Positions 20,198-52,524 of a stretch of DNA of 64,000 bases are shown one piece after another. The notes under the pieces are model-generated. The model had not been told where the DNA came from. It did no database searches and saw only the letters and a list, made by a program, of their open reading frames with translations. The position numbers and the translations under genes were made by a program. This DNA comes from Botryllus schlosseri (taxonomy: Eukaryota). Numbering within the stretch: position 1 is the first letter of the stretch; every line of letters begins with the position of its first letter. The stretch spans positions 20,214,001-20,278,000 of the forward strand of contig CM119371.1 of the NCBI GenBank assembly GCA_051294905.1, given 5' to 3'.

Positions 20198-20303
20198 GTC
20201 GCAACCCATACTTTAAGAACCCCTGGTGTACGACAAGCTGATTGATACGGTATGTAAAAATCCTCCTACGTGTATAGCATTTTAAAAACATGGCATTACT
20301 CCC

Positions 20304-21260
20304 TTGGAATACCTCACTGAGGAACTGTGTTCTGATCGCTATAGGCTTACGAAAGCCGGTGTTAGTGGATTTATGGAGGTCCTACAGTGTGACCTTACCA
20401 ACCCATCCAACAAAGGTCTGCCCCTGCCCCTGTTGTTAAAGTTCCTTGTTGTTTTGCGCTCTTACGCCGCAGGAGAGAGAGATATGATTTTTTTTTCGCC
20501 TGTACCATCGAGATGCTTTGACGACGGAGTTGCGATACGGCCCTGAGGTCATCTAGTCTGCGTCCCCGTTTTTTTTTCCTCCTCCATGATATCCGTCATT
20601 GCTGAGCGCCTAGCAGGATAGCTGCGGATACCAATTTTCGAGTCTTTGGTGTGACCCGGCCGGGGATAGAACCCACGACCTACCTATCGAGAAGCCGGAC
20701 GCATAACCATTACAGTATCTCGCAGGAATCTTTCAAGTTGTTGCTAGGGAACTGGTACATGAACCTGGGCAGTATTGCCATAGCTCATAAAAGCTCAAAA
20801 TACATCAAATTCCCACAAGGTGAAGTCGCAGCCAATGGGGCCACACGATTTTACGACTAATAGCTGCTGAACGTCGATATAACAAGGTTCAAATATCCTC
20901 CAGAATACCTATAGAACGGGCTTTTTGGAGTGTGGAAGAGCGTGTTTCCCTGCTTATCAAGGGATCGTCTACGGATAAGTGTCGACACAGCAATGGCTGT
21001 GATTGTTGCAACAGCAGTGTTATACAACTATGCCAGAAAACACAGGTAATATATTTCTTGATTTTTTTTAATATCAAGCGCTTAACTCCCTTCAAATTTA
21101 GGTGGATTATCAACAATGAAACTGATGTCCCTGTCATCCCGCAAGAAGTTGTAGAGGCATCAAGAGATGTACGAGGATCCCTGAGAGGCCTACCTAGCTC
21201 GGAGACGCCGGATCGTAGAAACCCACTTTACGAATGCAATATAATTTGTTATCATAAATA
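20304..21260 (+). pseudogene. PIF/Harbinger (HARBI1-like) transposase pseudogene, left-arm copy
   Basis: Reads DRYRLTKAGV…LTNPSNKGLPLP…VVLRSYAAG|[SINE]|IFQ, then KYIKFP…FYD, YNKVQISSRIPIERAF and MAVIVATAVLYNYARKH. The DDE core is missing and the 5' part is deleted relative to the right-arm copy. Confidence 0.8.
20475..20720 (-). mobile_element. tRNA-derived SINE
   Basis: Minus strand has an A-box-like TGTAATGG and a B-box-like GGGTTCTATCCC, plus a (CT)n tail. TSD CGCAGGA at 20468-20474 and 20721-20727. Confidence 0.82.
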
Positions 21261-21508
21261 AAATAACTGCGGTGTAACTTGTATGGAAGAGCACAGAAAG
21301 AAATGAAGTGGAACAGTACCTATCAATAATGCACAGTTACATAGACATAGCGAAAAAAAACATTAATATCGCGGTGCGGTGTTGCAAGTCAAGGCTTATG
21401 CAGTTAAATGGGCACAGCAAAAGAAACGTATTTAGGTCTTGGTGCTGCAATTAGAGGCATAGTAACTATCAATAATGGGAATAGCACAAAAGAATATTTG
21501 CATCTCGG

Positions 21509-22355
21509 CAGTGTTGGGAGCAAGTCACTACTTTCGAGTCACGAGTCATTTCGAGTCATTGCACATTTTGACTCGAGTCAAGTCAAGTCCCTCGATTTTC
21601 GAAAGTGAATCGCGTCAAGTCAAGTCACTCGTTTTTTGGAGGTGACTCGAGTCAAGTCACAATTCAAGTCAGATTGAATTTTCGAAGCATGAGTGATGAT
21701 TCAAAGTCATTACAGGTTGCTAGATGGGTGAAAAACAGATGTATTGGTCATATATCTTGAATCAAATAACGAGTATAAAGTCAAATATACATGCAAAAAG
21801 GCGCTGTATCGCTCACGCAGACGCAGAGCATCTAATAAAATACGTGAGCCAAAATGGAGGATAGAATACGAAGCGTCGATAAGTTTAAACAAATTGATAT
21901 GGTACAATACACTACCCATCTACTCATCCGTGAGAATATAAACGCATAAACTATATTCGTTCGATTCAAATCATACAAGAGGTTTGGTTGTAAGCGCTGA
22001 GCCGTCTAAGAAACAGAGATCCGTTGCTGTTGGATCATTCTACTGCTAGACATAAACAGTAAGCTGTCATCATTTCGTTTTCGGTGAGTTTATTTGTGAT
22101 GTAACAAGGAGGGATCAGTGAAAGGTACAATCAGTAAATGACTGGTTGCTGACACAAGTGACACCGGTGTATCGTGAATATTCCGAACATGAACAAGATA
22201 CACCGTTTACTTGATGACTTGAAATTAACTTGTAAATTTTGCTCCCAGTCACGAGTCAATCCACATTTTTGAAGCGCCGAGTCAAGTCGAGTCAAGTCAT
22301 TTTTGCAAAGTGATTCGAGTCAAGTCAAGTTATACAAAAAAGTTGACTCGAGTCA
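21509..22355. mobile_element. hAT-type MITE with (AGTCA/GAGTC)n arrays, right end truncated
   Basis: Starts CAGTGTTGGGAGCAAGTCAC. Arrays at 21535-21670 and 22245-22355. Homologous to 1821-2395. Confidence 0.75.
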
Positions 22356-22736
22356 TTTCAAAGCCATTTCTCGCCGATAATGATGGAGACAATGTGAATT
22401 TAAGATTTATTTAAGATTTCAAGGCGTTCAATAAGCCCGGTATCCCAAATTTACGAAGATATCAATTCATTAGCGTTGAGTACATCGTAAATGCCGATAA
22501 TGCAAGTCTTCTCACTTCTACGAACTTACGCGTGAGCTCCACTCTCGCACGCATTCTCGGTAATGGTATAGATAGAACCCCCGCGGCCCTAGTCTGCCGA
22601 GATTCCCCACTACTTGCTTACTACGTCAAATTTTAGCGGCTGTATTTGCGTGTGTGCACAGCGTGCGTGAGAGGCGCTTACGCGTAAGTAAGTAGAAGCG
22701 AGAAGACTTGCATTGTCGGAATTTATGGTTCTATAC

Positions 22737-24198
22737 CAGTGGTCGGGAACCTATGGCTCGCGAGCCATATATGGCTCTTTTGGGCATAAAGTATGGCTCT
22801 TTGCGAAAATTCTAATTTTGTGCATAATTTATCAATATTGCAGCAACTTGTTAATAAATCTTCAGCACAACAAGCATAATTATTCTTGTGGCAGTATAAA
22901 CATGTCTTTGAGAGGTGTGGCGTATTCAGGGTTAGGGGCTCGGAACCGTTTCAAAATCCTCAAATCTAAGTTGCTGTCTCGCCTGCGCCACGAAATCTCG
23001 GATTGCACGATGCGGTAATTGCTCAATGAGAATAGCAGACAAGGCGACGCCTGTATGACAATGCAGTTTTCAAATACTCATTGTCTTCCTGATCTACGGC
23101 GAGAAATGAACTCCGTGGAAGTGACATTCACAATTACGAATTCAAATTACAAACAACGCCATAGTGATCCACGTTCTTGATTGACAACGTAGCTTTGTAG
23201 TTGCTGTTCCAATGTAGGCGTGTGGCACAACGTTGTGTTACCGCCGAATACTTTGAGAATTGAGAAATCGAATCGGAATCGGTGCAGCAATTACATTCAA
23301 TTATTACACAGGTCAACAGAACGAAAAAATAGGCAGAACATCTAAGAGCCGTTTCTGGGGTTTTCGAGGTTGCTGATTACGAATATCACATTAGTGATTA
23401 GAGATAGGCTCTTGTACCCCTAAAAAAGTCCAAAATTACTATATTTACCATTGAATATTTTATTTGGCAAGTATTTACCATCGAATATTTTACTTGGCAA
23501 GAAGAAAATCGTAGTTTTTTTTATAGGTTTATTTATACTGCCCTTCAATAGATAATAATCGACTATGAAGAACCCTCATGTCGTCCCCATCGGTTATCTC
23601 CAAAAAAAGAGCCGATTTGAAAAAACTAAGGTCATTTTCGGAATCAGCGCCCTTCAGAACCACCAAACCCACTCTTACTTTGTATGCCCAAAAATATGTG
23701 TTTACCAGTGTTATCAGTTATTATAAATTTTATGATGTTTACGATGAACTGCGCTATGCTAATCCCGGCCGTGCCTCACCTATGCCTTACCTCCCCTTTC
23801 ACGCTATATTTTCGAACAATAAATAGGCAAGTTGCGTGATTCTCGTAGTAAAAATGTTCAAAATCTAGTAGACAGGTAAGGCACTGCCTCACGTGCTTCC
23901 CCTGAAACCACGTCACTGACGAATCGCACATTACGGTGGGTATGCATGCTGCTGTGTAGTGACCATCATGTTTGGCTCCGCCTACTTATGCCCCCATGGG
24001 TCCTCGCATTTATGAATATCGTCAAGACGAACCTACGATCTCGTATAACTGACGAAAGTCGACGAATTTTCGCTACCATGACGTCACTATTTTTCAATTG
24101 TGACGTATTAGTTGATTAAAATGTATGGCTCTTTGGAAGTTAAGATGGAAACTAGGGGACAATATGGCTCTTCGGACAAGAAAGGTTCCCGACCACTG
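22737..24198. mobile_element. hAT-type MITE present only in the left arm
   Basis: TIR CAGTGGTCGGGAACC / GGTTCCCGACCACTG. TSD TTCTATAC at 22729-22736 and 24199-24206. Single-copy empty site at 37354-37361. Confidence 0.93.
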
Positions 24199-26065
24199 TT
24201 CTATACCAATACCGAGAAAACTATTACCGGGAATTGACATTACCGAGAACAACCAATGCCAAGAATCTAACTTACTGAGAAGGCGTTGTCGAGACATTTA
24301 TATCTGAGATAAGACACCGAATGTGACAAAGCCGTCATGCATATGCACACGGCCTGTAAATATGCATAACTTGCCTGCATTGCATACATTGCATACATTG
24401 CATTCTCGGTAATGTCCATTCTCGATAATGGTTTTCTCGGTATTGACTGAACACCGGCCGGCGGGCCCCATTATAAACCAAGACGGGAACTGTCAGCGGG
24501 CCGGATCCGGCCCGCGGGCTGTATGTTGCCCGCCCCTGATGTATCGTAACATTTCTGACAGTGATGTAGCCATTGAAAGGCGTGGTGACAACGATGCCCT
24601 ACTCAAGTGAAAGTCCTTATAGTTAGGGTTTATATCAGTGGTTCCCAACCTTTTTGACGTCGGGGCTGCATTTCAATCCACAGAGTACGATGGAGCCAAA
24701 GGGGACAAAATTATTTATACAACGCAGCTTACAGTTAAGTTTGCCGCATTCGTGACCACGTCACCTTTTCAGCGCAGAGCTCCTCGAAACATTTTTTTAT
24801 ATATAATGTACACTGTACAGTGATACAGGTATTGACGTTGCCCTCAAAAACAGACAATTTATATACAATTTTTAACGTAATTCTGTCCTTTGTTGCTCCA
24901 CCTACCGTTAAACAAAACTTTGGTAGTTTGGTCAAATATTTCAGGATCGGATCTGATAAATACTATCACTGCCTTTTATAGAACCTGATTAACATCAAAC
25001 GGCATGGAAGCATCTCTATGACCCCAAGACTTTTTTAAATTACAGTGCTAGCCTGGAGTGCAATTAATATCCCATCTCTTCTGCGATATGATTTATTTGA
25101 AATATTGAACGCTAGAAATCGATCGCAATTCCAAATACTTTATCGCTCCTTCCTGCTTCATATCTTCTTTCTACCGGCTTTAAAGAGAAAAATAGCCATG
25201 AAAGGCGTGGTGACAACAGTCCCCCACTCAAGCGAAAGTCATTATAGTTAGAGTTTATATCAGTGGTCCCCAACCTTTTTACCGTCGGGGCTGCATTTCA
25301 ATCCACAGAGTACGATGGAGCCACATCAAAATACTCAAGTACTTAAAATGATGCAATTTAAAGCATAGGCAATGCACATTGCGCATAGACTGCTTTGGAT
25401 ACCATATCGATTGGTTGAGCATTGAAATATACGCAGATTAGCGATTGCTATTCAACGACACAAGGAATGCATATCATTTCTACAACGGAATATATATGTC
25501 GTTATGTGATAGAGCTCGTTCCTTCATCAATATTATAACGCAGAGCTAATGTTTATGTGATGTTATTGATGTGTAATCTGACTCCAGAAGGTTGCGTTGC
25601 GTATCCGTTGCGTGTATCTGTTTCTGACGTACCTCACTATGACGTAACACGCGACATGGAACCAGCCCGATCGAAACGGCACCCTCATTAATGATTACTG
25701 AGCGTATTTTCACGAACACGCTTCACTTAATCCAAAATTTCCTGGGTTGTTCTGGTCGTAGACAATTACAACTATTACAGATGGATAGCCATTATCAATA
25801 CGCATACGTCGAGCCATAAATAACATCTTATACTATCGAATAGCCTGTTCAAAATGCAGATTGAATACATAAAAACGTTTTGCGCAAAATACAATTCGCC
25901 ACGACGTTCGCGTGAATGTGCGCGCCTGAGATAAACCAGCGCCCGTGACCTAAATCAGCGCATCTGCGAGACATCAAATTCATTTGCAGATCTTTTCTCC
26001 TAACATGTGTTGGTTATGCCCATTGTCCATCTATTGGAATACTTATAATCAAAAATTAGTCGCAC

Positions 26066-26140
26066 AGAGAGTAGCTCAGTTGGTTAGGCGGCTGTTTCAC
26101 GATTACAGCGATATATTGGGTGTCGGTTCAAGTCTCGTGG
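26066..26140 (+). other. tRNA-like / SINE-head sequence (probably a pseudogene)
   Basis: GTAGCTCAGTTGGTTAG (A box) … GGTTCAAGTC (B box). No convincing acceptor stem. Confidence 0.5.
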
Positions 26141-26780
26141 TTCGGATTTTATGAACATTTTTCTAAATGCATTGAAATTTGGACTCGAGGCCGGCCGTTC
26201 TGATAGAAAACGAATTTCTTAACACTCGCATATACACTCAATGCAATACGTGGCTATAACGGCGTGGCAGTTCTTATCAATATTTCTCGTGAGGCCGGAA
26301 GTCTTATCGGATGTTTCTTGGGAATTTGGTAATATCTTTAGCTAATGCGTTTACAATCCTTTCACTGGATTGTAATGAATATCTAACGTTATACTTATGA
26401 AAAAACTTATTATACGCGGAGTGAAATTGAACTCATTCTGAATCTGGCTTGGCTACAAGGCATCATATTGGTATTAGTAAAATCGTATGGGCTGGGCATG
26501 GGCAATTGGGCATGTTTTCGATCACCAGCAGAAAGCAAGACAGATTCCGGCCACCACGTCCATGCTTTTGACGCTGGTCTGCGTGAAGTCTTTCCCTGAT
26601 ATTCAGAAGTCACCTTAAACGGCTTAGAGTCGCCTGAAATGGATTTACGCTTCTCTTTATTGTGATTGATAAGACATCTGCCGTAGTCAATCACCAATCA
26701 CAAAACGAACGGTGCAATTTTGATTGACAAAGCTTAGCTAGATCCACCAACATGTTCACGTGTCTCATGTTGACATATCT

Positions 26781-27090
26781 TAGGCTTACCATATTTCGGA
26801 AATGAAAAAAGAGGACACTTTTTCAGAAATATCAGACAAGCAAAACTGGAGAAGAATTCTCAAAAACATGTAAATTTCACCCGCTTCATGATCGGTTGAC
26901 TAAAAAAAAAAAAAAAAAAAAAAGGTCATCACTTCCGCTCAGAGCTCAAAAACACGTTTTTCACTCCACATTGCTAGGTGGATGACTAAAAAAATAAATA
27001 AATATAAAAATAAAAAGGTCTTTTTTTCGCTCAGAGCTGAAATCACCACTTTTCCCAAATCCTCGTAAAAGAGGACGTATGGTAAGCCTA
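26781..27090. mobile_element. hAT-type MITE present only in the left arm
   Basis: TIR TAGGCTTACCATA / TATGGTAAGCCTA. TSD ACATATCT at 26773-26780 and 27091-27098. Empty site near 35124-35131. Confidence 0.92.
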
Positions 27091-28039
27091 ACATATCTCA
27101 ATCAACAAATTCAGGAATGTGGAATAAACATATACGCTTATACTCACTAAATGATGTAATAAACGCACTCTCCCCCTTTGCAAGAAGCCCAATTTCCGAT
27201 ACCGCCGCAATCAGCGGCAGTGGTGCATGGAGCTAAAATCAGCAATATATTTGGTTATCTGTAGCAATGTAGCATGATTTAAAAAAGATTTATGACTCAC
27301 TTGCACCTGTACCATCCACGAAAAATAGCAGCCCAGTGATTGTAGTTGCGAATGCGAGAAGTAGATTCACCATGTTTGTGCTCTTGAGTTCGAATGCAAC
27401 TAGATTGAAAAAGCGTCGCGTTTTATGCTGTCTCTGAAATTTCTGATGTCATTTATCAATTGTAAGAACGGTGATGAAATCGGATGTCGTGCCATCAGAT
27501 CTCTTCAACGACACCGGTGCGTATTTTATTTCGTCTTGCCTGTGCCTACTATCTTGTCTGTTACACGAAAGATCCGCGCATTTATGTGGTCTCACGTTTC
27601 AAGTTTTGACAGATGCCACGTACAATATCGTCGATTGTTATCATATTTTGGGTTTAATTTGAGCACGATGTTGTATTCAAATGAGTAACGTCAGCTAAAA
27701 TTGAGTCACCGAGCCTTCTAGCTGCGCTACTGAACAAATGCAGGTCACAAATATCGCAATGGAACAATCAAGTGCTAGGCGTGATTACGACCGATCTCGA
27801 TGCGTTAACACCACTCAATAACATATTTTATAGCTGCAGTTCCCATATGTCGATATCTGAGAAAAATCGCAGCCGCCATAAATGTTTTCACACCTTCACC
27901 TTTAATTTAATGTAAGGCTGCCAAATGTCAGGATTTTCCCGGGCATAATCTATTTCAAACTATCGTCAATACAACAAATACCAAATTGTCAGGTGTGTTT
28001 GTCAGATTTCAAAATGAAAATGGTTTTGTTACTCTAGGA

Positions 28040-28810: not shown

Positions 28811-28824
28811 CTCTAGGAAAAGCT

Positions 28825-29195
28825 AGATGACCAAGAGAAAATGTATTGTTACACTGGGTAAACGTCAGATCTCCAAAGGAAAATGATATTTTTACTCAGG
28901 TAAACGACGGACCACCAAGTGAAAAAAGGTTTGTAACCCAGGAAAAATATATTTCCAAGCGAAAAAGGTTTGTTACCCGGGAAAAAATATATTTCCAAGT
29001 GAAAATTGTTTGTTGCTCAGGGAAAAAATATATTTCCAAGTGAAAAAGGTTTGTTACCCGGGGAAAAAATACATTTACAAGTGAAAATGGTTTCTTACTC
29101 TGGGTAAACGTCAGATCTCCAAAGGAAAATGATATGTTTAGTCAGGTAAACGATGGACTGCCAAGTGAAAGTGGTAATTTTACATACGTAAACGT
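28825..29195. repeat. ~40-bp tandem minisatellite (about 9 degenerate units)
   Basis: Recurring CCAAGTGAAAAAGGTTTGTTACCC(A/G)GGAAAAATATATTT and the variant …TTACTCTGGGTAAACGTCAGATCT. Confidence 0.85.
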
Positions 29196-34200: not shown

Positions 34201-37200
34201 TACATCAATCCTTCATAATTCCTGACATTTGGGCACATTTTAGAATTTCCTCACGGACGCATTTGAACGGGGAAATTCCGGACTTGCCCGGGAAAATCCT
34301 TACATTTGGCAGCCTTACATTAAATTAAAGGTGAAGGTGTGAAAACATTTATGGCGGCTGCGATTTTTCTCAGATATCGACATGTGGGAACTGCAGCTAT
34401 AAAATATGTTATTGAGTGGTGTTAACGCATCGAGATCGGTCGTAATCACGCCTAGCACCTGATTGTTCCATTGCGATATTTGTGACCTGCATTTGTTCAG
34501 TAGCGCAGCTAGAAGGTTCGGTGACTCAATTTTAGCTGACGTTACTCATCTGAATACGACATGGTGCTCAAATTAAACCCAAAATATGATAACAATCGAC
34601 GATACTGTACGTGGCATCTGTCAAAACTTGAAACGTGAGATCACATAAATGCGCGGATGTTTTGTGTAACAGACAAGATAGTAGGCACAGGCAAGACGAT
34701 ATAAAATACGCACCGGTGTCGTTGAAGAGATCTGATGGCACGACAACCGATTTCATCACCGTTCATACAATTGACAAATGACATCAGAAATTTCAGAGAC
34801 AGCATAAAACGCGACGCTTTTTTAATCTAGTTGCATTCGAACTCAAGAGCACAGACATGGTGAATCTACTTCTCGCATTCGCAACTACAATCACTGGGCT
34901 GCTATTTTTCGTGGATGGTACAGGTGCAAGTGAGTCATAAATCTTTTTTAAATCATGCTACAGATAACGAAATATATTGCTGATTATAGCTCCATGCACC
35001 ACTGCCGCTGATTGCGGCGGTATCGGAAATTGGGTTTCTTGCAAAGGGGGAGAGTGCGTTTATTACATCATTTAGTGAGTATAAGCGTATATGTTTATTC
35101 CACATTCCTGAATTTGTTGATTGAGATATGTTAACATGAGACACGTGAACATGTTGGTGGATCTAGCTAAGCTTTGTCAATCAAAAATGCACCGTTCGTT
35201 TTGTGATTGGTGATTGACTACGGCAGATGCTTTATCAACAAGACAACGCTGACATTTATGGGTAGTACACTTAACAAATACGATACGTCGTCATAATAAA
35301 GAGAAGCGTAAATCCATTCGAGGCGACTCTAAGCCGTTTAAGGTGACTTCTGAATATCAGGGAAAGACTTCACGCAGACTAGCGTCAAACGCATGGACGT
35401 AATGGCCGGAATCTGTCTTGCTTTCTGCTGGTGATCAAAAACATGCCCATGCCCAGCCCATACAATTTTACTAATACCAAAATAATGCCTTGTAGCCAAG
35501 CCAGATTCAGAATGAGTTCAATTTCACTCCGCGTATAATAAGTTTTTTCATAAGTATAACGTTAGATATTCATTACAATCCAGTGAAAGGATTGTAAATG
35601 CATTATCTAAAGATATTACCAAATTCCCAAGAAACATCCGATAAGACTTCCGGCCTCGCGAGAAATATTGATAAGAACTGCCACGCCGTCATAGTCACGT
35701 ATTGCATTGAGTGTATATGCGAGTGTTATGAAATTCGTTCATATAGGCTACAATTGAGGTACATTCAAAATTATATCTGGTTCCATGTCGCGTGTTACGT
35801 CATAGCCAGGTACGTCAGAAACAGATACACGCAACGGATACGCAACGCAACCTTCTGGAGTCAGATTACACATCAATAACATCACATAAACATTAGCTCT
35901 GCGTTATAATATTGATGAAGGAACGAGCTCTATCACATGACGACATATATCTTCCGTTGTAGAAATGATATGCATTCCTTGTGTCGTTGAATAGCAATCG
36001 CTAATCTGCGTATATATTAATGCTCAACCAATCGATATGGTATCCAAAGCAGTCTATGCGCAATGTGCATTGCCTATGCTTTAAAATGCATCATTTTAAG
36101 TACTTGAGTATTTTGATGTGGCTCCATCGTACTCTGTGGATTGAAATGCAGCCCCGACGTCAAGAAGGTTGGGGACCACTGATATAAACCCTAACTATAA
36201 GGACTTTCGCTTAAGTGGGGGACCGTTGTCACCACGCCTTTCAATGGCTACATCACTGTCAGAAATGTAACGTTACATGGACCTATGCCTTTGCCTTCAA
36301 TGGAATAAGTTAAGCCTACTATTCGATATCTGCATAAAGCAGGAAAGCTTTTATGTTGATATGTATTTTTCTCTTTAAAGCCGGTAGAAAGAAGATATGA
36401 AGCAGGAAGAAGCGATGAAGTATTTGGAATTACGATCGATTTCTAGCGTTCAATATTTCAAATAAATCATATCGCAGAAGAGATGGGATATTAATTGCAC
36501 TCCAGGCTAGCACTGTAATTTAAAAAAGTCTTGGGGTCATAGAGATGTTTCCATGCCGTTTGATGTTAATCAGGTTCTATAAAAGGCAGTGATGGTATTT
36601 ATCAGATCCGATCCTGAAATATTTGACCAAACTACCAAAGTTTTGTTTAACGGTAGGTGGAGCAACAAAGGACAGAATTACGTTAAAAATTGTATATAAA
36701 TTGTCTGTTTTTGAGGGCAACGTCAATACCAGTGTCACTGTACAGTGTACATTATATATAAAAAAAAATGTTCCGAGGAGCTCTGCGCTGAAAAGGTGAC
36801 GTGGTCACGAATGCGGCAAACTTAACTGTAAGCTGCGTTGTATAAATAATTTTGTACCCTTTGGCTCCAACGTACTCTGTGGATTGAAATGCAGCCCCGA
36901 CGTCAAAAAGGTTGGGGACCACTGATATAAACCCTAACTATAAGGAATTTCACTTGAGTGGGGCATCGTTGTCACCACGCCTTTCAATGGCTACATCACT
37001 GTCAGAAATGTTACGATACATCAGGGGCGGGCAACATACAGCCCACGGGCCGGATCCGGCCCGCTGACAGTTCCCGTCTTAGTTGATAATGGGGCCCGCC
37101 GGCCGGTGTTCAGTCAATACCGATAAAACCATTATCGAGAATGGACATTACCGAGAATGCAATGTATGCAATGTATTCAATGCAGGCAAGTTATGCATAT

Positions 37201-38859
37201 TTACAGGCCGTGTGCATATGCATGACGGCTTTGTCACATTCGGTGTCTTATCTCACATATAAATATCTCGACAACGCCTACTCAATAAGTTAGATTCTTG
37301 GTATTGGCTGTTCTCGGTAATGTCAATTCCCGGTAATAGTTTTCTCGGTATTGGTATAGAACCATAAATTCCGACAATGCAAGTCTTCTCGCTTCTACTT
37401 ACTTACGCGTAAGCTCCTCTCTCGCACGCTGTGCACACACGCAAATACAGCCGCTAAAATTTGACGTAGTAAGCAAGAAGTGGGGAATCTCGGCAGACTA
37501 GGGCCGCGGGGGTTCTATCTATACCATTACCGAGAATGTGTGCGGGAGTGGAGCTCACGCGTAAGTTCGTAGAAGTGAGAAGACTTGCATTATCGGCATT
37601 TACGATGTACTCAACCCTAATGAATTGATATCTTCGTAAATTTGGGATACCGGGCTTATTGAACGCCTTGAAATCTTAATTATATCTTAAATTCACATTG
37701 TCTCCATCATTATCGGCGAGAAATGGCTTTGAAATGACTCGAGTCAACTTTTTCGTATGACTTGACTTGACTCGAGTCACTTTGCAAAAATGATTTGACT
37801 TGACTTGACTCGGCGCTTCAAAAATGTGTATTGACTCGTGACTGCGAGCAAAATTTACGAGTCAATTTCAAGTCATCAAGTAAACGGTGTATCTTGTTCA
37901 TGTTCGGATTATTCACGATACACCGGTGTCACTTGTGTCAGCAACCAGTCATTCACTGATTGTACCTTTCACTGATCCCTCCTTGTTACATCACAAATAA
38001 ACTCACCGAAAACGAAATGATGACAGCTTACTGTTTATGTCTAGCAGTAGAATAATCTAACAGCAACGGATCTCTGTTTCTTAGACGGCTCAGCGCTTAC
38101 AACCAAACCTCTTGTATGATTTGAATCGAACGAATATAGTTTATGCGTTTATATTCTCACGGATGAGTAGATGGGTAGTGTATTGTACCATATCAATTTG
38201 TTTAAACTTATCGACGCTTCGTATTCTATCCTCCATTTTGGCTCACGTATTTTATTAGCTGCTCTGCGTCTGCGTGAGCGATACAACGCCTTTTTGCGTG
38301 TATATTTGACTATATAATCGGTATTTGATTAAAGATACATGACCAATACATCTGTTTTTCACCCATCTAGCAACATGTAATGACTTTGAATCATCACTCA
38401 TGCTTCGAAAATTCAATCTGACTTGAATTGTGACTTGATTCGAGACTTGACTTGACTTGACTCGAGTCACCTCCAAAAAACGAGTGACTTGACTTGACTC
38501 GATTCCCCTTCGAAAATCGAGTGACTTGACTTGACTCGAGTCAAAGTGTGCAATGACTCGAAATGACTCGTGACTCGAAAGTAGTGACTTGATCCCAACA
38601 CTGCCGTGATGTAAATACTCTTTTGTGCTATTCCCATTATTGATAGTTACTATGCCTCTAATTGCAGCACCAAGACCTAAATACGCTTCTTTTGCTATGT
38701 CCATTTAACTGCATAAGCCTTGAATTGCAACACCACACCGCGATATTAATGTTTTTTTTCGCTATGTCTATGTAACTGTGCATTATTGATAGGTACTGTT
38801 CCACTTCATTTCTTTCTGTGCTCTTCCATACAAGTTACACCGCAGTTACTTTATTCATG

Positions 38860-39977
38860 ATAACAAATTATACTGCATTCGTAAAGTGGGTTTCTACGAT
38901 CCGGCGTCACCGAGCTAGGTAGGCCTCTCAGGGATCCTCGTACATCTCTTGATGCCTCTACAACTTCTTGCGGGATGACAGGGACATCAGTTTCATTGTT
39001 GATAATCCACCTAAATTTGAAGGGAGTTGAGCGCTTGATATTAAAAAAAAATCAAGAAATATATTACCTGTGTTTTCTGGCATAGTTGTATAACACTGCT
39101 GTTGCAACAATCACAGCCATTGCTGTGTTGACACTTATCCGTAGACGACCCCGTGATAAGCAGGGAAACACGCTCTTCCACACTCCTAAAAGTCCGTTCT
39201 ATAGTTATTCTGGAGGATATTTGAACCTTGTTATATCGACGTTCAGCAGCTATTTGTCGTAAAATCGTGGGGCCCCATTGGCTGCGACTTCACCTTGTGG
39301 GAATTTGATGTATTTTGAGCTTTTATGAGCTATGGCAATACTGTCCAGGTTCATGTACCAGTTCCCTAGCAACAACTTGAAAGCTTCCTGCGAGATAGTG
39401 TAATGGTTATGCGTCCGGCTTCTCGATCGGTAGGTCGCGGGTTCTATCCCCGGCCGGGTCACACCAAAGATTCGAAAATTGGTATCCGCAGCTATCCTGC
39501 TAGGCGCTCAGCAATCACGGATAGCATGGAGGAGAAAAAAAACGGGGACGCAGACGAGATGACCTCAGGGCCGTATCGCAACTCCGTCGTCAAAGCATCT
39601 CGATGGTACAGGCGAAAAAAAATCATATCTCTCTCTCCTGCGGCGTAAGAGCGCAAAACAACACGGAACTTTAACAACGGGGGCAGGGGCAGACCTTTGT
39701 TGGATGGGTTGGTAAGGCCACACTGTAGGACCTCCATAAATCCACTAACACCGGCTTTCGTAAGCCTATAGCGATCAGAACACAGTTCCTCAGTGAGGTA
39801 TTCCAAGGGATTATCAGAATCTGTAAGGTACTTCTGTACTTGCTGCAGCTTGTTTCCATCCACTTGCATGTAATATTCTAACATATCTATGTCAATATCC
39901 ATTTTATCTGAAAGGAATGAAACACGTACTGTATACCTATCTGCCGATATATGGAATCGGTGCCTCGTGCACACCAA
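38860..39977 (-). pseudogene. PIF/Harbinger (HARBI1-like) transposase pseudogene, right-arm copy (retains 5' end)
   Basis: ORF 39492-39977 reads …YLTDSDNPLEYLTEELCSDRYRLTKAGV…RSYAAG. Removing the SINE gives YAAGSFQ, matching the HARBI1 Y/FATGSFQ motif. Confidence 0.82.
39393..39635 (+). mobile_element. tRNA-derived SINE (mirror of 20475-20720)
   Basis: AGATAGTGTAATGGTT…GGGTTCTATCCCCGG. TSD TCCTGCG at 39386-39392 and 39636-39642. Confidence 0.82.
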
Positions 39978-40281
39978 AGATTCTACTAACTGTACAGGTA
40001 CACACGGATTTAACAGTCAATCTGACCGACAACCAACCGTTTTATGTTATGAAGCGACAACAAATCTGCCGACCATCGAACCTCTCGACCGTGAATCACG
40101 TGTTGCCCATCTATCCGTGGGTTAGTTATCTATAGTATGATAGCAAAGCAGTTTATCGACACTTAAACTTTATTCAAGAGGGTAATGCCATGTTTTTGAA
40201 ATGCTACACGTAGGAGGATTTTTACGTAACGTGTCAATCAGCTTGTCGTACATCAGGGGTTCTTAAAGTATGGGTTGCGAC

Positions 40282-41833
40282 CAGAGTTGGATCAATTGTA
40301 ATTTGTACTTGACCTGAATGTAATTAATACATTTTTCCATGTAATTGTAATTGTAATTTGATAAAAATTTTGCTCAATTACAATTTCAATTACATTGTTA
40401 TGGAAACCTGGCAATCACAACATAAAATAATAATCAATCAATCATTTATTCGTCACACCAGTGAAAATCCGGTACGGACCAGGATGACGACGATGGGCCG
40501 CAACCCGCAAGGCCTTAAGGCCTTGGTACACAGTCGCCACCTGTAATAGTTAGCCTATTTACATCAGTGTTCTATGCGTGCCGTGTTAAAACTAGATAAT
40601 TCAGCCATGCTAAACTGTTTCCCATACTTCAGCAGCAACAGAAAACTTTGTGAATTACTATTATAGGCTAACCCAGTGGTTCTCAAACTGGGGGACGTTC
40701 CCCCTTGGGCGACGTGAAAGCATCTGAAGGGGGGCGCGAAGCTCCGGTAAACTGAAATTTTTTCCGCGCTTGGCGCGGTTCACCTCCATTTCATAGTTAT
40801 TGCTCTGTGTATAGTCCATATTTTCTATTGGAGAATTATCTCATCAACAGTCATAACCTTCCATACCATCAAACTATCTGTAAGGATTGCTAACATTCTG
40901 GTTTCCTTGTGTGCCGTGACGATAAGGGGGGCACGAAATATTTCACTGTCATAAAGAGGGGAGTGTCTAAAAAAGTTGAAGAACTAGTGGGCTAAACTAA
41001 ATCTTAATATTTCAAAAATGGATGAACAGCAAATAAACTCTTCTGAAACCTGTGCTGAACCATTTCCTACGCCACGGTCAGAGTTTTTCTTTTAAATCTC
41101 TGACCAGTACCGAGGCTTGCTGCAACAATTGCAAAAAGAAATTCAAGTTTCCAACCAAGGTTTTATCAAACTTGATCACGCATTTGTAGAGATGTTATCC
41201 CAATTTTACTTCCAATCTCGGCCAAATTTACTGGGGCCAGAAACTTTTCGCACTCCAAAGTTCATCAAATGCAATCTAACAGTTTCGGAGGAAGTGAAAA
41301 TGTAAATGCGAACCTGAATGTTGCAATTCGTAGTTATCGGAAGGTTCTTTCCTGTTGCATTTATTTTAATTTTATATGCCTTATCGCTTACCAATTACAT
41401 TTCATTATCCTCACTCAGCTCTGAGTAGCCTAATCGTTTGATTGCATTTCATTACCTGTCCTGTAGCCTATTCGCTGTTAGTCGCTCAAACTTATGGTTG
41501 TTAGCAGTCACTTGAAGCATTTTTCTGTGTTTGTAGTTTTCAGTACTCATGATTAGGAATAGTTCGAATACGTTCGAGTTTTTTTTTAATTAAAGGATAT
41601 TCTACGTATCATGAATGAAACATGAATAGATTCAGATTGTCGCTAATTACGTCACTGCGGTTGTCAAAGAACACCTCTCTACCGAGTCAATCACATGTTT
41701 AACAGTAATTGTAATTGTAATTTGATATTTTTAGCATTGAGTAATTGTAATTGTAATGTAATTGAAACATGCAAGGAAGTAATTCTAATTGTAATTGTAA
41801 TTGTTCTGAAATATTGAAATTGATCCATCTCTG
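40282..41833. mobile_element. hAT-type (CAATTA)n MITE, mirror of 18621-20197
   Basis: TSD GTTGCGAC at 40274-40281 and 41834-41841. Confidence 0.9.
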
Positions 41834-42297
41834 GTTGCGACCAAAACATGGGTCGCGAAGGGTATAATTTTGTGTGGCGGCGGCACCAGATCAATCTTTT
41901 AATATATATATGGCAAATAGATTAAGTGCAATAAAAAAATTCTTCGCGCGATTACCTGTGGTTGATTTGTCTGCGTCCGAGTTCACTGTGTCGGGTACTA
42001 TATCCAGTGAGCGAGACACGCAAAAATGTTGTTACTACAATATGGCTATATCATGAAAATTTATCGACATTTGTATTACACAGATCGGCTCGAATTCATG
42101 ATAAGATTTGTCAGATATTGGTTTGTCTGTAAAACACTGTAGGATATCGCTTGGAGGCTTCAATGTAGAGGTGTGAAACAATCGGGTACGGGACTGTATG
42201 GCAGAGGTATTTTGAGGCAAACCCTTTCCGCACCGGAACACATGAAAACATGAAGATTAGGCCATCACATTACTGAGCAAAATGCGGTGTCAGGAAG

Positions 42298-42600
42298 GGT
42301 CCGTGGACATATGAGCATGCGACATTACAGCATGCGAGACTTCGGCATGCGACAATTTGGCATGCGACAAATGAGCATGTGGGTTAAATTACGGGTCAGG
42401 GGTATGTTAGGGTTGGATTTATGGTTGGGTTAGGGTTAGGCTTTAGGTTAGGTTAGGCTAGGTTAGGTTAGGTTAGGCTATGTTTCGGGTTAGGGTAAGT
42501 TTTTGGGTTATACAGTCACATGCTGAAGTGACGCATGCTGATGTGTTCCATGCTGAACTGTCGTTTTCCATTGTGTCGCATGCTCATATGTCGGGCAACC
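42298..42600. mobile_element. Mutator-like MITE with internal (TTAGG/TTAGGG)-like repeats, right arm only
   Basis: Imperfect TIRs GG…GACATATGAGCATGCGACA / TGTCGCATGCTCATATGTC…CC. 9-bp TSD GTCAGGAAG at 42289-42297 and 42601-42609. Empty site CTTCCTGAC at 18157-18165. Confidence 0.88.
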
Positions 42601-43454
42601 GTCAGGAAGATGTGCGGACATGAAGCCAAAATGACCGTCACCGGTTGGTGAAACCTTGGATGCTGATACGTCCGGTTGTTAAAATGGTCGGCACCGGCAC
42701 AGTTTGTTTGTATGTGGTATTCATGGTGTTTGTCGACTTCTATGGTCATTTACACCAGGCCGATATTGTTCATTATTTTCCGTAACTGCCGACTTATAGA
42801 ACAGCCCACCTCTAGGCTTTTTGTAAGACACCGCTTACGCGGATGAGGTGGCCAGGAGGAGCCTAGGTAAACCTACAACATTTAGGTATCGGAATTCTGA
42901 AGTCGACCTCAGGTGAGAGTTGAAAAGAGAGAAGTAGATGGTTCGTAGTACTGATCTGGAAACCAAAGATTGCAGACGGACAGTGATTGATGGTACATAA
43001 AAATCCTATTACAGTTGTTATTACTATAGTAATTCAAAGATACCTTTGAAAGCAATTGTTTTCATGATAAAGAAGTTGGGGTCGGAGTCGGATTCGAAAT
43101 CAGGGTCATTTTCACAAACTCCGACTCCACCGACTCCGACTCCACATCCCTGCTCTGTACCCCCCATTGCAGCTCGATATCAATATTCTATAATCCGTTT
43201 CTTAGCTGTACCGTACTAATTGGACACGACTTTCATTTCGCGATGATGATAATTCTTCCTATTACAGTGGCAGTATCGTTATCAGCAGGCTGCCGTTTTA
43301 TTCAACAAATTGACAATTGACAGCCAATAACGTGTTTTCACATTAAGATGCAACAGATAACGCTATCATCCATATACATGGCTACACGGAGCATTATCTG
43401 GAACAGCTATATACAGCAATACACTGCTATAGTCAGATTACTTACGGTCTACGA

Positions 43455-45946: not shown

Positions 45947-46675
45947 CAGGGCTGACCAACCTTTTCAGCCAAAGGGCCACATTTGATTGACGAACTATTG
46001 CGCGGGCCACTGGCCGTGCCAGGCGCGAAAATTTTTCGAAGTTCATAGTTCAATATTATTGTCATTTGACTATATTGCAGGCCTGCTGTAGGCTATATCG
46101 CTGGGATCAGTTTGAAAGGAATGGGCTATTCGGCGCTCGGACATATCGATATCGAAAGCTTCGACCAAACATGCGTCAATTATTTTGTGCCTAGGTTTCA
46201 TAGTCGACGGTCTTTCTGCGAGCGCAAACGCAAGGTCGCATATGTTGAACGACACTTTGTCTCGTAATCGCGAATATAGTTAGACTCAATCTGATACATT
46301 AGGCGTTCTTTCATTTTCACAAAGGGGTAACAATTTAAAAGCAAGAAATCGAGTGATAACATGTTACGCGAAGCGTGTAGAAGTTTTTTACTTTCGATAA
46401 ATCTATCGCAAATTATTCTGCTATATTGTGGTCTACGAAGATCTACCAAAATGTGACTGGCTCAATGACCTGCCAATGCGTCGGAACTGATATTTTAGTC
46501 ATCACATCTCTAGTGTGGCGGCCAGACTAATCAAATTTTTGGTTGGCCTTGCAAGTTCACAATCTGTGCAATCCATTTTTGATAATATTACTAATTTCGG
46601 AAATTAGCTCGCGGGCCACTCAAAACCTTTTTGCGGGCCACATGTGGCCCGCGGGCCACGGGTTGGCCGGCGCTG
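45947..46675. mobile_element. hAT-type MITE (family shared with 58052-58771)
   Basis: Ends CAGGGCTGACCAACC / GGTTGGCCGGCGCTG. Colinear with 58052-58771. TSD not preserved. Confidence 0.8.
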
Positions 46676-47556
46676 GTTTAGTACATAAAAACACTTTTAT
46701 GATCAATTTTGGTCATCTTCATCGTGATCTTCTATCCCCGAAAACCCCCCAAAGATTCACGGGACAATTCTCCTTACTACTGGATATGTAATGTTGACCG
46801 CGTCATCGGTCTATAGCTTTTGTGACGTTATCAGTTGAAAACGACCGTGTAGAGATAATATATTGCAATAAAATAGCCATTTTTTCAAAATTGTACTTGA
46901 ATGCAGTCCTATAAAGGCCACACGCACATCGATTTTACTCTGCACAACCTGTCCATCATGCCCATGGGAATCATGTATTGGTTGCACTATAGAGTATGAC
47001 TGGAGTGACGACTCGATTGTTCTCCCATTGTTAGCCGGCAGAATGGTCACGGTCAGATGGATGCACCCAAAACAGGATAGCTCAGTGCTTGTTTCAATGG
47101 CGTTCAAGGCGATTCGTCGTGTATTTCTTGAAGTTGCGTCGGAATTAGTTAGACAGTTCAACATTTAGGTAGCGGTGGCGAGTCGTTATGACTGGTGAAT
47201 AATACTGTGTAGCCTATGATACATTTCTCACGAGATTGATGTGATATTGTGGCTTTGATCGTTTGCAGAGTTTGCTACGTATATGAATATAATGACAGAA
47301 GGTATGGGATATCTGGTTCGTGTGCATTGGCTATTGTGAGATGAATTCATGGAAAGAAAGACTGAAGAATACTACAAAGTGAACAAGTGGGAAGATCTTG
47401 AACTATACCGATATGCAATTCACAATATCGTTGATTGAAAATATGTCCTATATTAACTGCAGAAACTCGAGTATGAATATAACAAATAATATTGCAACTG
47501 TCTTGTAGTCTTATATAATGCCTGTCCGATAACCGCAGAAACTTGAGTATGAGTAG

Positions 47557-48847
47557 CAGGACCGTAACTGCCACACCTCAAACCCCCCAATTGGGGGGGG
47601 GACAGAGCTCGAAGAGGGCTCAAAATTATTTCGCGAATTAGCATAAATTATTGAGTATTTTTCAAAAATTTTTCGCTCTGCGTGCGATTTCGAGTTGCCC
47701 ACTTTCTTAGTTATTTGGTAGCCTACTCTTCCCCAAGACAAAATACTCAAGATCTATCGAAATGGACATATCGGCGAGACATTTAAAGTTTTAGAACATG
47801 TAACATGCGACTCCAAGAAGTGTGCCAGAACGATCAGCAGCGAGAAAACCTGGGCCAAAATGGACTGCCCGCTTACGCTGACCGAAAACTTCGTTATATA
47901 TGCAAAATGCATATAGGTTTAATTGTCCATAGGCGCCTAAATGACTGGCGCCGAATGTTCCTGTCTTGGCAATCTGAACCTCAGAAGACAAATACCATTC
48001 CGCAGGGTAAAATTGTATGCCCGTAAAGAAATACCAATTTGAAATCGTGTGCGTCGTTAATCTAGTACATTTGGGCGATTCTATATTTTTTGATATAACA
48101 GACAGGAGATCACAAAATGACATCATGAAACGAAGTCATACCAACGGGGCCGCCCGCCTGAATATCTTTAATTATTATTTACGGGCCCTACAGTTTCCAA
48201 GCCACCTCATTCAGCTCTACCGGTAAATCTGACAACGTGAACAGAGAGAACAAGAAATTGATAGTAATGTATATGCAATTCCCAATATTATTGACCGATT
48301 TTATCATGAATTATCGAATATTTTCGCGCCTCGCGCTGGCTCACTAAACTGTTGCCCTTATTTCGTGACAAAAGCGAACAACGTGATGGAGGGGGGCGGT
48401 TTATCACCCTATGGGAGCCCAAGACCCAAGTTTTATTGGGGGGCCTGGCCAAGTGCTGTTTCGTTCCTGCGAACGGGTATACGCCCGAAGATGTTCAATT
48501 ATTATTGAGGGGTCCTACCATTTCAAACACACCTCACTCAGGTCTACCATTAAATCTGATTACGTGGGCAGAGAGAGGATAAAAATTGATAACAATATAT
48601 ATCCAATTCCCGATCATATTGACCGATTAAATCATGAATTATGAAATTTTTCGCGCTTGCCGCGTGTGGACGACCAAATCTGCCCCACTAAACGGACGGT
48701 GAACTCAGATGATGAGTAGCGGTAAACATCGTATAGCCAATGAGGAGTCTGGGGGGCCAAGCCCCCCAGAACTTCGGTTTATCACCCTATTGGGGGCCCA
48801 TGACCAACGTTTTTTTGGCGGGCTGACGAAGTGCTGTTACGGCCCTG
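47557..48847. mobile_element. hAT-type MITE nested in element 46987-50454
   Basis: Ends CAGGACCGTAAC / GTTACGGCCCTG. TSD ATGAGTAG (47549-47556) / ATGACTAG (48848-48855). Confidence 0.85.
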
Positions 48848-49117
48848 ATGACTAGAACAAGAGCCTTGTGTAATGTTAATGTTCTGCTTGAGCTCGACTC
48901 ACAATAGCCAGAGCTTACTCCTTGAAAGTGTGCAAAATCGCACTTGAAGGGAACTCGTTGTCATTGCCAAGAACACAGGAAGACGTCTGCCGGTCGACAT
49001 TAGTAGTAAGCCAATGCACCACGTCAAGGTTTCGACCAACGCATTGGTTTCCTTTTTTAGGTAGGGAACCTCAATGTGGATAGGCAGCATTTGCCACAGA
49101 GAGAAAAAACTACCATA

Positions 49118-50166
49118 CTAAAAGAGCATATTGTTCATTTCTTTTTTCAAGCCATCTCGCAAACTTTTGGAAAATTTGGAGGACTTTCTTTGCTTCTCAT
49201 GCAATGCAAACTTTGCAAAATTGTGAGACAAGATGTTGTTTAAGTGTCTCATTGCCTTGTCCATGACATCCTCAACCTCATTTAGGTCTGAGCCAGATTG
49301 AAGTGACACAGTATGAATTAATTTGTTATAAAATGGATCACAGTGAATTGCGTCAAGTACCCTAAAAAAATTGATCTTTTTCAGGGGTTTTCCCATTTCT
49401 TTACTGTGGATAACATAAAAGCGGAGAACCATGCCATGAAACTGTTCAGACGGGCTCTTCAATCCACCGACTTTCTTCTGCATCACTTTAATGAGGTTTC
49501 CCGATGGCGCTGCAGATGTTAGGCATGTGGCAATTGCTTCGTTAGCTTGCTTAGAAATGGCTCCTAAAAGCACTCCACCAATATATTCAAGTATGTCTAA
49601 AAACATGTCAAAGTTTTTCCATGGAAAGGCAAAATATCAAAGGCTATTTACTTAACAGATTCCATGCTGTTGACTCCTCCAATCTCTGTGATTGGATCCT
49701 GTTCTTTACCGCGCACGAGAGAATCAAACATCTTCAAAAGTAATGCTGAAGCTGGCAATTGCGGCAAACCCAGCAACTTGTTAGCTTGGGGAAAGATATT
49801 TGAATAATGTTGATAAAATCCGTCAACACCAAGTTTGCAATATTCAGAATGGAGTTGTTTCACCAATGGAACAGCTTTGGTCACGTCTAGTTCCTCGAAT
49901 GATGGGGCGCATTCAAAGTATGTTTTGCTATTTACACAAGCCCTCTTCAAAACAGCAATTACAGCATCCTCAGATATATCCCAAGTACTGGTGGGAACTT
50001 TATGATTTTTGTAATGTTTTTTCAGAGCTTTCACAGTCGGAAAGGATGCTTCGCATTCCTCACAAGTCACACCTTTCCAGTTATCGAGTCCTTCAAAACA
50101 TTCTTCAATTTCCATTTCAGTTAGTCCCTCCCAGTCATCCCAAAGTGATGCAGCTGAATCAGTCAT
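49118..50166 (-). CDS. Transposon-borne two-exon gene: N-terminal C2H2 zinc finger + YIGG-motif domain (~329 aa if spliced); donor site looks mutated
   Basis: Exon 1 (50166-49656) has an acidic N-terminus and CEECEASFPTVKALKKHYKNH. Putative 59-nt intron 49655-49597 (TTAAGT…TTTTAG). Exon 2 (49596-49118) has DILEYIGGVLL…LIKVMQKKVGGLKSPS…KSLRDGLKK. 511+479=990 nt in frame. Confidence 0.72.
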
Positions 50167-52524
50167 GATACCGATTTCTATCCATGTCGAAATGTGATCT
50201 AAATCTGGCGAAAAACATAACAGAGGCTATACAAGGTATTATTCACTAGTCATAACGACTCGCCACCGCTGCCTAAATGTTGAACTGTCCAACTAATTCC
50301 GACGCAACTTCAAGAAATACACGAAGAATTGCCTTGAACGCCATTGAAACAAGCACTGAGCTATCCTGTTTTGGGTGCATCCATCTGACCGTGACCATTC
50401 TGCCGGCTAACAATGGGAGAACAATCGAGTCGTCACTCCAGTCATACTCTATAGTTGCACCATTGACATCGGCTTGATTTGGATCGTACATTGAAGAAGC
50501 GCCGCTGGGTTGCAATTCGTGAACAAATACTGATATTACCAGCTAGTTTTCAGCTATAAGGTATTATTCAAAGGTATGCAATGTCAGTAATACTTTTCTC
50601 AACTTCAATCATCTATAAAATACCGAGTTGTCTTATTTTATGGTAGACTGCAATTTAGTTGCAGAAGAATGTCTGAAACAAAGCGGATATGGGTTTTGCG
50701 GACCAACCATGGACAAGATTCAGGCCTGCGCACTATTTGGTCTGATATTGTGGTCACTATTCGGTCGGATATTTATCTGAGTGTATTAGTCACTCCAAGC
50801 TACGGACTCTAGATGCGGTTCTACTACATGCGGCATATCTGAAAGAAAATTGCCCCGAAACTACCACAACGCAGGACTATGTCCTAACTGTTAACGAGGC
50901 TGCCAACGTATGGAATATGACAAGAATATCTATATAGGGCAAGCGCTGAACATTTTCTTGATGCATTGTTTCAGGCATTCTTCTTCAACTAAATTGCAGT
51001 CTATCATAAAATAAGATAACTCGGTATTTTACAGATGATTTGAAGTTTAGAAAAGTATTTCTAACATTACATTCCTTTGAATAATACCTTATGGCTAAAA
51101 ACTAGCTGGGAATACCAGTATTTGGTCACGAATTGCAACCCAACGGCGCTTCTTCAATGTACGATCCGAAACAAAGCCGATGTCAATGGTACAACCAATA
51201 CATGATTCGCATCAGCATGACAGACGGGTTTTGCTGAGCAAAACGGAGATGTATGTGGCCTTTACAGGACTGCATTTCAATGAAATTTTAAAAACATATC
51301 TATTTTATTGCAATATCTCGTCTCTGCATGGCCGTTTACGAATGATAACGACACAAAAGCTATAAACCGGTGACCTGGTCAACACTACAGATCAAGCAGT
51401 AAGGAGAATTGCCCCGTGTATCTTTGGGGGCCTTTCGGGGATAGAAGATCACGAGGAAGATGACCAAAATTGCTCATAAAAGTGTTTTTTTGTACTAAAC
51501 CATCATTTGGGTCACAAGCATCGTAGTTTACTGACAATTTTCCAAATCTGAACAACCTCTAAGGCTCATATTTCACAGACCAGATACGTTTCGGTTACTC
51601 GACAGTATAGTGATACCACTATCGACGATTACGGATAACTTCCATTGTTCTTACGGGAAAATTTTTTATCACTGCCAATCTCTTTGCTGCTGCAAATTTC
51701 TGGATTGCAGGTATACCGAAAGGTTATAAGATTGTGGTATGTTCAGTGGCCAAATTTATGACCGGCGCCGAAATGCAAGTGTCTGAGAGCCCCGCACCAG
51801 CCTGACTAAATACTAAAGCACCCCTACGGCTTCAACGAATGATAGCGAAAAAGACTAGTGGGCTTTCTGTAACATATGTTGTATTTTTTATCATTATCCT
51901 GTTATCCTTCCGTCGGATGGGATGGTACCCAAATTGAGAGCAATGAACCCTTTCAAGTGAAATCACGCGAGGATGATTTCTGAACTGAAGAAACCTGGCC
52001 AATAATATTCTACTTTCTGTTGATTTGCAAAATAATTCTGCTGCATATAGGCTATAATTTTACACTACATCTCTTACGCCGTATTTTGGTAGGCCTACTT
52101 CGTATTTCTCAGGGTTCGATGAACCGCTGGTTAAAACCGCAGCGGAAATAGTTCCGTTCATTACCTGGGCGATTGATTTCTGTAGGCAGGGAATTGGTAG
52201 GTTACTGTACGTAATTCGCGCCACCCGTATTGATATGGTACGGCGAAAGTTGTACCATTATTTCGTACATTTCGTGAACATAAATTACCGAGAGATAGTT
52301 GCGTTCCTACAACAGTACGCCTAGTATATACTATCGACATACATTCGGTAAATATGATTACACCGATGGTATTCATTCAATATAGCACTGCCACAAAATG
52401 TTGTTGATCCATCGAATTAGGTTAGATACTTGCTTTATGCTGGATGCCAGGGATGAACTGTAGCTTATTTATCAGAATTGGGCAATGAGGGCCACTTATT
52501 CCAATATTCATTTCTATTATTTAC

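Follow-up and report, generated by a model that had tools for sequence, protein, structure and literature searches.

The window analysed here is a stretch of 64,000 nucleotides from the Botryllus schlosseri genome (GenBank assembly GCA_051294905.1, contig CM119371.1, positions 20,214,001 to 20,278,000 of the forward strand); all coordinates given below count from its first letter. At 46988-50453, it contains a 3.5-kb transposon copy that is bounded by long terminal inverted repeats (TIRs) and carries, on its minus strand, a two-exon gene for a protein of 329 amino acids (aa) (Table 1). The element is a genuine TIR transposon copy, with arms that differ at only 8 of their 225 aligned nucleotides, in good agreement with the near-perfect repeats of ~230 bp described in an earlier reading of the letters alone (hereafter the sequence-only reading). 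That reading had taken the element for an unclassified new system. Our results point instead to a variant of the P type, because its cargo is related to the C-terminal domain (CTD) of P-element transposase and because the most plausible length of its target-site duplication (TSD), 7 bp, suits the P superfamily.

Table 1. Features of the element and its insertion site (window coordinates).
Feature	Position	Strand	Description
Left TSD, preferred 7-bp register	46981-46987	+	GTTGCAC; registers of 5, 3 and 1 bp are also compatible with the empty site
Left TIR	46988-47212	+	~225 bp, first bases TATAGAG; 8 mismatches to the right TIR
Element-specific interior	47213-47556		No long open reading frame (ORF), no transposase Pfam match
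Nested 1,291-bp high-copy element	47557-48847		CAGG...CCTG ends; 8-bp duplication ATGAGTAG (47549-47556) / ATGACTAG (48848-48855)
Interior behind the gene's stop	48856-49117		Protein-like plus-strand frame containing a stop; no relative found
Exon 2	49118-49596	-	Domain related to the P-transposase CTD, basic helix at the end
Intron, 59 nt	49597-49655	-	Acceptor canonical; donor TT here, GT in other copies
Exon 1	49656-50166 (read 50166 to 49656)	-	Acidic N-terminus, one C2H2 finger (~49999-50064), helical stretch weakly like the N-terminal helical domain of the family
Right TIR	50229-50453	-	Pairs with the left arm
Right TSD, 7-bp register	50454-50460	+	GTTGCAC
Paralogous empty site	51189-51195	-	GTTGTAC; lies in the other arm of the fold-back repeat (~46674-51502) that hosts the element

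The element is inserted into the left arm of a fold-back repeat, whose opposite arm represents the empty site and contains the sequence GTTGTAC once. This host repeat (46674-51502) is itself gene-less, with arms of ~450 bp that are 83-90% alike and a spacer of 431 bp. The insertion is also reflected in contigs from two of the four runs considered in this work (X1, X7, X13 and X17). One contig of X1 joins position 46980 to 50456 with a single letter between them and thus represents the empty form, with one base fewer than predicted, and a 909-nt contig of X7 follows the TIR from 47205 outward to 46986 before continuing into 689 letters of different flank, which, as far as such a contig can tell, indicates a second insertion site of the element.

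The empty site supports the duplication proposed in the sequence-only reading, but not its length of 5 bp, since four registers rebuild exactly the same site: 7 bp (GTTGCAC, with element ends TATAGAG), 5 bp (TTGCA, CTATAG), 3 bp (TGC, ACTATAG) and 1 bp. The CTATAG termini given in that reading are consequently not established either. A 2-bp duplication of TA fails to rebuild the empty site and was ruled out. At this one locus, the 7-bp register appears to be the likeliest, because a 7-bp site with GT..AC edges beside TA..TA ends automatically produces the shorter readings. On the base composition of the window, and with no target preference assumed, the coincidence required is ~0.07 for the 7-bp register and ~0.004 for the 5-bp register, which makes the latter ~18 times less likely. 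In the second flank provided by X7, the AC preceding TATAG is still matched, compatible with the 7-bp and the 3-bp register. Duplications of 7 bp are a feature of Galileo, where they have the consensus GTANTAC (PMC4168063), and also of 1360 (PMC3698922). The misfit with the P family that the sequence-only reading had noted rested on the 5-bp length, one of several registers, and with 7 bp as the likeliest of them, this apparent conflict would disappear. It is conceivable that the element instead represents a different or new superfamily with duplications of 5 bp (or 3 bp) and CTATAG (or ACTATAG) ends, whose P-CTD-like gene is there by chance. Such an assignment could draw on the exact reconstruction of the empty site by these registers, on the lack of a transposase for classification and on the terminal bases of the element, which start with TA (TATAGAG in the 7-bp register) and not with the 5'-CA found in most P elements. 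However, while the GT..AC site yields the 5-bp and 3-bp readings automatically, the reverse would need a coincidence of ~0.004; moreover, the cargo is P-related, and both Transib/RAGL (5'-CAC) and Kolobok (TTAA) misfit, so that we consider a separate superfamily rather unlikely.

The interior of the element is interrupted by a nested 1,291-bp insertion, which is absent from the description in the sequence-only reading. Its 8-bp duplication is identical at 7 of 8 positions, and, from the length of this duplication and the nature of its ends, we take the insertion to be hAT-like. The depth of the nested element is far above that of its host element in all four runs, and two internal repeats (48155-48329 and 48482-48656) are 80% alike. 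Immediately in front of it, the element's own sequence shows a 26-bp direct repeat (88%; 47454-47479 and 47530-47555). Contigs of X7, X13 and X17 cross both junctions of this nested insertion, which is therefore part of the family's common form; a form in which 1,299 bp are skipped at this site is found in X1. The length of the element minus the nested insertion is 2,167 bp. Neither the list of ORFs nor Pfam searches with the element's frames revealed a transposase core or a recognizable remnant of one, consistent with the sequence-only reading, in which no DDE motif was evident. In particular, none of the nine read-through plus-strand frames matched a transposase Pfam family, and nothing in the unique parts of the element, whether ORF or Pfam match, pointed to the THAP, RNase H (DDE) and GTP-binding domains of P-type transposases. 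The plus-strand frame spanning 48852-49061 was considered as a possible transposase remnant and rejected, as it has no relative among longer proteins, although this is weak evidence.

The gene itself can be read as a two-exon unit. Its joined frame has no internal stop, and when the 66 in-frame pairs of donors and acceptors were scored against the family profile, the join across 49655-49597 ranked first, with 159.8 bits vs 144.1 bits for the next. The resulting protein contains the motifs EYIGGVLL…GGLKSPS…KSLRDGLKK and, in exon 1, a single C2H2 finger (Pfam zf-C2H2_6, E value 7e-5, below the curated cut-off), so that the two ORFs, the 59-nt intron, the motifs and the finger were all recognized correctly in the sequence-only reading. 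Its description of the gene as near-intact was overstated, however, because the window copy has TT instead of GT at the splice donor (49655). The base that restores GT is found in contigs of all four runs, with 8,898 of 8,972 depth units in X1 and all of them in X7, X13 and X17, where the summed contig depths are not taken as copy numbers. With a GT donor in the other copies, the intron is therefore a feature of the family, and the window copy is predicted to be unspliced at this position, yielding a product of 172 aa that lacks the CTD. Weaker cryptic donors exist in the window copy, whose gene we predict to be silent through its broken donor. Two of the runs are possibly RNA but may be DNA; no spliced joint was present among the 15 joints listed for them, beside which there are 373 more, and an X17 contig continues through the intron, so that these runs carry no weight for or against splicing.

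The protein does not stand alone. A search with exon 2 among 1.84 billion representatives, carried out with no length limit, returned 18 relatives, of which nine comprise 277-331 aa and the rest are shorter, with none longer. Judging by these sequences, the 329-aa gene is a member of a family of stand-alone proteins of ~280-330 aa. In its full-length members, 151-161 residues separate the YxGG motif from the C-terminal end. An acidic start, as in exon 1, was present in all ten full-length relatives tested, and a basic tail in all 19 relatives tested (20 of 20 tails overall). A profile of 15 relatives, with the window row left out, matched exon 2 at an E value of 2e-43, and the joined exons scored 25 bits above exon 2 alone against the same profile, in one collinear match. 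In a tree of 20 stored proteins, exon 2 clusters with P0002, P0004 and P0006 (support 97/90), in which the called frames begin just before the same exon junction, with the first exon missing from these calls. For exon 1, a pairwise profile comparison with the family gave an E value of 0.004. The search with exon 1 found no longer relative, its single-sequence structure model was unusable (predicted local distance difference test score, pLDDT, 47.6), and the ESM Atlas matches of exon 1 and of the relative P0011 lay below recognition level and were discarded.

These data also bear on the origin of the gene. An internal deletion in a one-gene P transposase could have fused the CTD exon to an unrelated zinc-finger exon, as might be suspected from the weak family likeness of exon 1 and the absence of its C2H2 finger from the stored relatives. 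However, nine relatives that have diverged to 25-34% identity with exon 2 share the stand-alone size and the position of the domain, splicing restores collinearity with the top-ranking of the 66 joins, the three nearest motif-bearing relatives begin just before the same junction, and no THAP or RNase H match was obtained upstream, all of which makes a fusion of this kind distinctly unlikely. Among 20 relatives checked for copies, 13 are singletons, whereas others form near-identical groups of 15, 11 and 10, with one sequence present on 25 contigs. Groups of this kind are compatible with transposon genes, but could also reflect several assemblies of a single species. Even so, the copies, together with the fact that the best match of the relatives is a transposase domain, render it highly unlikely that a non-autonomous element has captured an ordinary or domesticated single-copy host gene, a scenario that the intron and the C2H2 finger could otherwise suggest.

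The relationship to P transposase emerges from the family as a whole. The top match of the family profile in the PDB is the P transposase chain 6p5a_B of the Drosophila P strand-transfer complex (E value 0.001), and the Pfam family Tnp_P_element_C (PF12596), for which the accessible part of PMC5751038 contains a table mention only, is matched by 7 of the 16 aligned members at E values up to 1, the best being 1e-4, with the first member below the curated cut-off. A structure model of the relative P0005 (pLDDT 82.6) aligns to 6p5a_B over 114/118 residues with a Z score of 10.9 and a root-mean-square deviation of 2.5, and this is the sole chain with a Z score of at least 8 among 48,161. Foldseek likewise places 6p5a_B first, with a probability of 0.97. 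The N-terminal helical domain of P0005 (approximately residues 37-120) has no clear structural match in the whole-model comparison. By sequence profile and predicted fold, the C-terminal half of the family thus matches the P CTD. These results support the kinship that the sequence-only reading had seen between the YIGG...GGL.PS pattern and the C-terminal part of P/THAP9 transposases.

Collectively, it seems probable to us that the locus harbors a copy of a non-autonomous TIR element that lacks a catalytic core and carries a stand-alone CTD gene, that likely descends from a two-gene P-type parent, generates a 7-bp TSD and relies on a core supplied in trans, and that is predicted to be silent in the copy at hand. 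It would accordingly be a P-type variant, namely a defective copy of a CTD-only non-autonomous family, and not a new superfamily. The sequence-only reading had suggested a deletion derivative of a two-gene convergent element, and we infer much the same, with the reservation that the catalytic gene is not present in the element. The parent may have been a 'split-transposase' P-type element with two genes, in which an internal deletion removed the core gene and left only the CTD gene. This loss would have been followed by the 1.3-kb nested insertion, by the spread of the element as a helper-dependent family and, in this copy, by the loss of the splice donor, with mobilization and 7-bp duplication being achieved by a catalytic core provided in trans.

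In the solved P transpososome, the CTD bridges two subunits and contacts both transposon and target DNA while being part of the same polypeptide. A loosely tethered domain of this kind could be produced as a separate protein, and in the lineage studied here the CTD protein may have become a transposase subunit in its own right. Its acidic N-terminus and extra helical domain might dock it on the core, thereby replacing the covalent linker, whereas its basic last helix could grip target DNA and its C2H2 finger add further DNA or protein contacts. Alternatively, the protein may act beside a complete transposase as a regulator or targeting factor, for instance as a dominant-negative CTD decoy, rather than as a required subunit. 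When isolated, a domain with affinity for the core or DNA might be inhibitory as well as helpful, the spreading of a family in which only this gene is kept would fit a regulator, and truncated repressors are known products of P elements, a role played by their truncated 66-kDa product. Yet the basic target-contacting helix has been retained in 20 of 20 tails, and we consider a regulator or targeting factor of this kind unlikely. The 66-kDa truncated form of the P element is covered in PMC7776569.

Several observations weigh against the interpretation of the element as a P-type, CTD-only derivative. The connection to P is transitive, being made by way of the family (profile-profile, 99.9%): exon 2 of the window copy itself gives no match to PF12596, and the profile of the nearest clade misses 6p5a at E values up to 10. 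Moreover, the Foldseek E value for 6p5a_B is 0.12, and the Z score of 10.9 lies below the level that the tool regards as safe for helical folds. Exon 1 alone is only weakly family-like (5.0 bits, a score reached by 1 of 500 shuffles), the C2H2 motif occurs in none of the 60 stored proteins, and the relatives are automatic gene calls, which can miss upstream exons. In addition, the TSD was read at one locus, and the second flank also accommodates a 3-bp register with ACTATAG ends. Finally, no two-gene parent locus was found: scans based on the protein relatives revealed no related locus in viral contigs, metagenome contigs or prokaryote genomes, and the exact TIR patterns had no match in metagenome or prokaryote contigs.

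Some information on the fate of the gene comes from a comparison of the window copy with the contigs. Among the 40 differences selected and listed by the tool, a small sample beside which there are 389 more, eight fall into the exons, and six of these are synonymous, compared to an expected 21-27% (P 0.002-0.007). As both the window copy and the majority form carry the nested insertion and lack a core gene, these mostly synonymous changes hint weakly that selection on the gene may have continued beyond the loss of the core. The synonymous excess could also have arisen by copying from autonomous elements during gap repair. Based on this hint, one may go further and envisage a bipartite transposon, in which the P transposase is split between mobile elements, with a CTD-only family under selection providing the target-DNA-gripping subunit, including its zinc finger, in trans and being moved by core-encoding partners. 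For the time being, we regard this extended scenario as doubtful.

Other parts of the window contain further repeats. A large inverted duplication (17637-27945 / 34285-43129) consists of several blocks of mostly 95-97% identity (one of 87%), with ~6.3 kb between its inner arms; its outer ends revealed no clean TSD. A short tandem array with units of ~41 bp is located at 28816-29170, and the longest open frames elsewhere in the window lie at 3338-4573 (minus strand) and 7548-8171 (plus strand), with lengths of 190-221 aa.

Because it does not encode a catalytic transposase, we keep the element outside P, Galileo and 1360, while presuming that it works like a non-autonomous P-type element. The P element of Drosophila melanogaster (PDB 6P5A/6PE2; PMC7776569) is likewise a TIR element, and the CTD fold, its motifs and the basic last helix are common to both. 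In the 87-kDa P transposase, however, a single protein comprises six domains, of which the CTD comes last (PMC7776569). Here, the CTD makes up the C-terminal half of its own 329-aa protein, which also has an acidic start, a C2H2 finger and a separate helical domain, whereas THAP, RNase H and GTP-binding domains are not encoded. Moreover, the TIRs measure 225 bp, compared to 31 bp in P, and the TSD probably 7 bp, compared to 8 bp. We found no literature report of P elements in which the CTD is encoded by a gene of its own, although Repbase Reports and subscription journals were outside the search and may record a second ORF. Galileo combines long TIRs and a 7-bp TSD with the palindromic target GTANTAC (PMC4168063), which compares to GTTGCAC at the insertion and GTTGTAC at the paralogous site. 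Both Galileo and 1360 comprise many deleted copies with nested elements (PMC4168063, PMC3698922), as seen here, but have one intronless transposase gene, with no separate CTD gene described in the accessible text; the likeness considered here is one of features.

A natural family with a separate CTD would allow the role of this domain to be tested directly, by comparing the core alone with the core plus CTD protein and by swaps, and a CTD-only element in particular bears on the question of whether a subunit of this type can persist and be provided in trans, although the defectiveness of the present copy limits what this element adds. Transposons with a second protein are known from other superfamilies. 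Kolobok Kol0 with its KolX protein is a DDE transposon plus a small second protein, but it differs in its TTAA TSD, its RR ends and the cysteine-rich cytoplasmic-ballast fold of KolX (PMC9587614); with neither a TTAA TSD nor 5'-RR ends at the locus, Kolobok was ruled out. Transib/RAGL (ProtoRAG) was rejected as well, since 5'-CAC is absent at both ends jointly, with CAC at the left junction only and AAC at the right end, and since neither Pfam nor PDB profiles revealed a RAG1-like/Transib transposase or a RAG2-like gene, the only gene matching the P CTD. RAGL/ProtoRAG elements indeed differ by their 5'-CAC ends and RAG1L/RAG2L proteins, neither of which was matched here, and by their 5-bp TSD, a length that is among the possible registers of the present element but less likely than 7 bp. 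They nevertheless set a precedent for a transposase encoded by two convergent genes, as well as for incomplete elements that retain a single gene (PMC7204232). If our interpretation is true, a cut-and-paste transposase of the P type can similarly split into subunits, in parallel to RAG1/RAG2.

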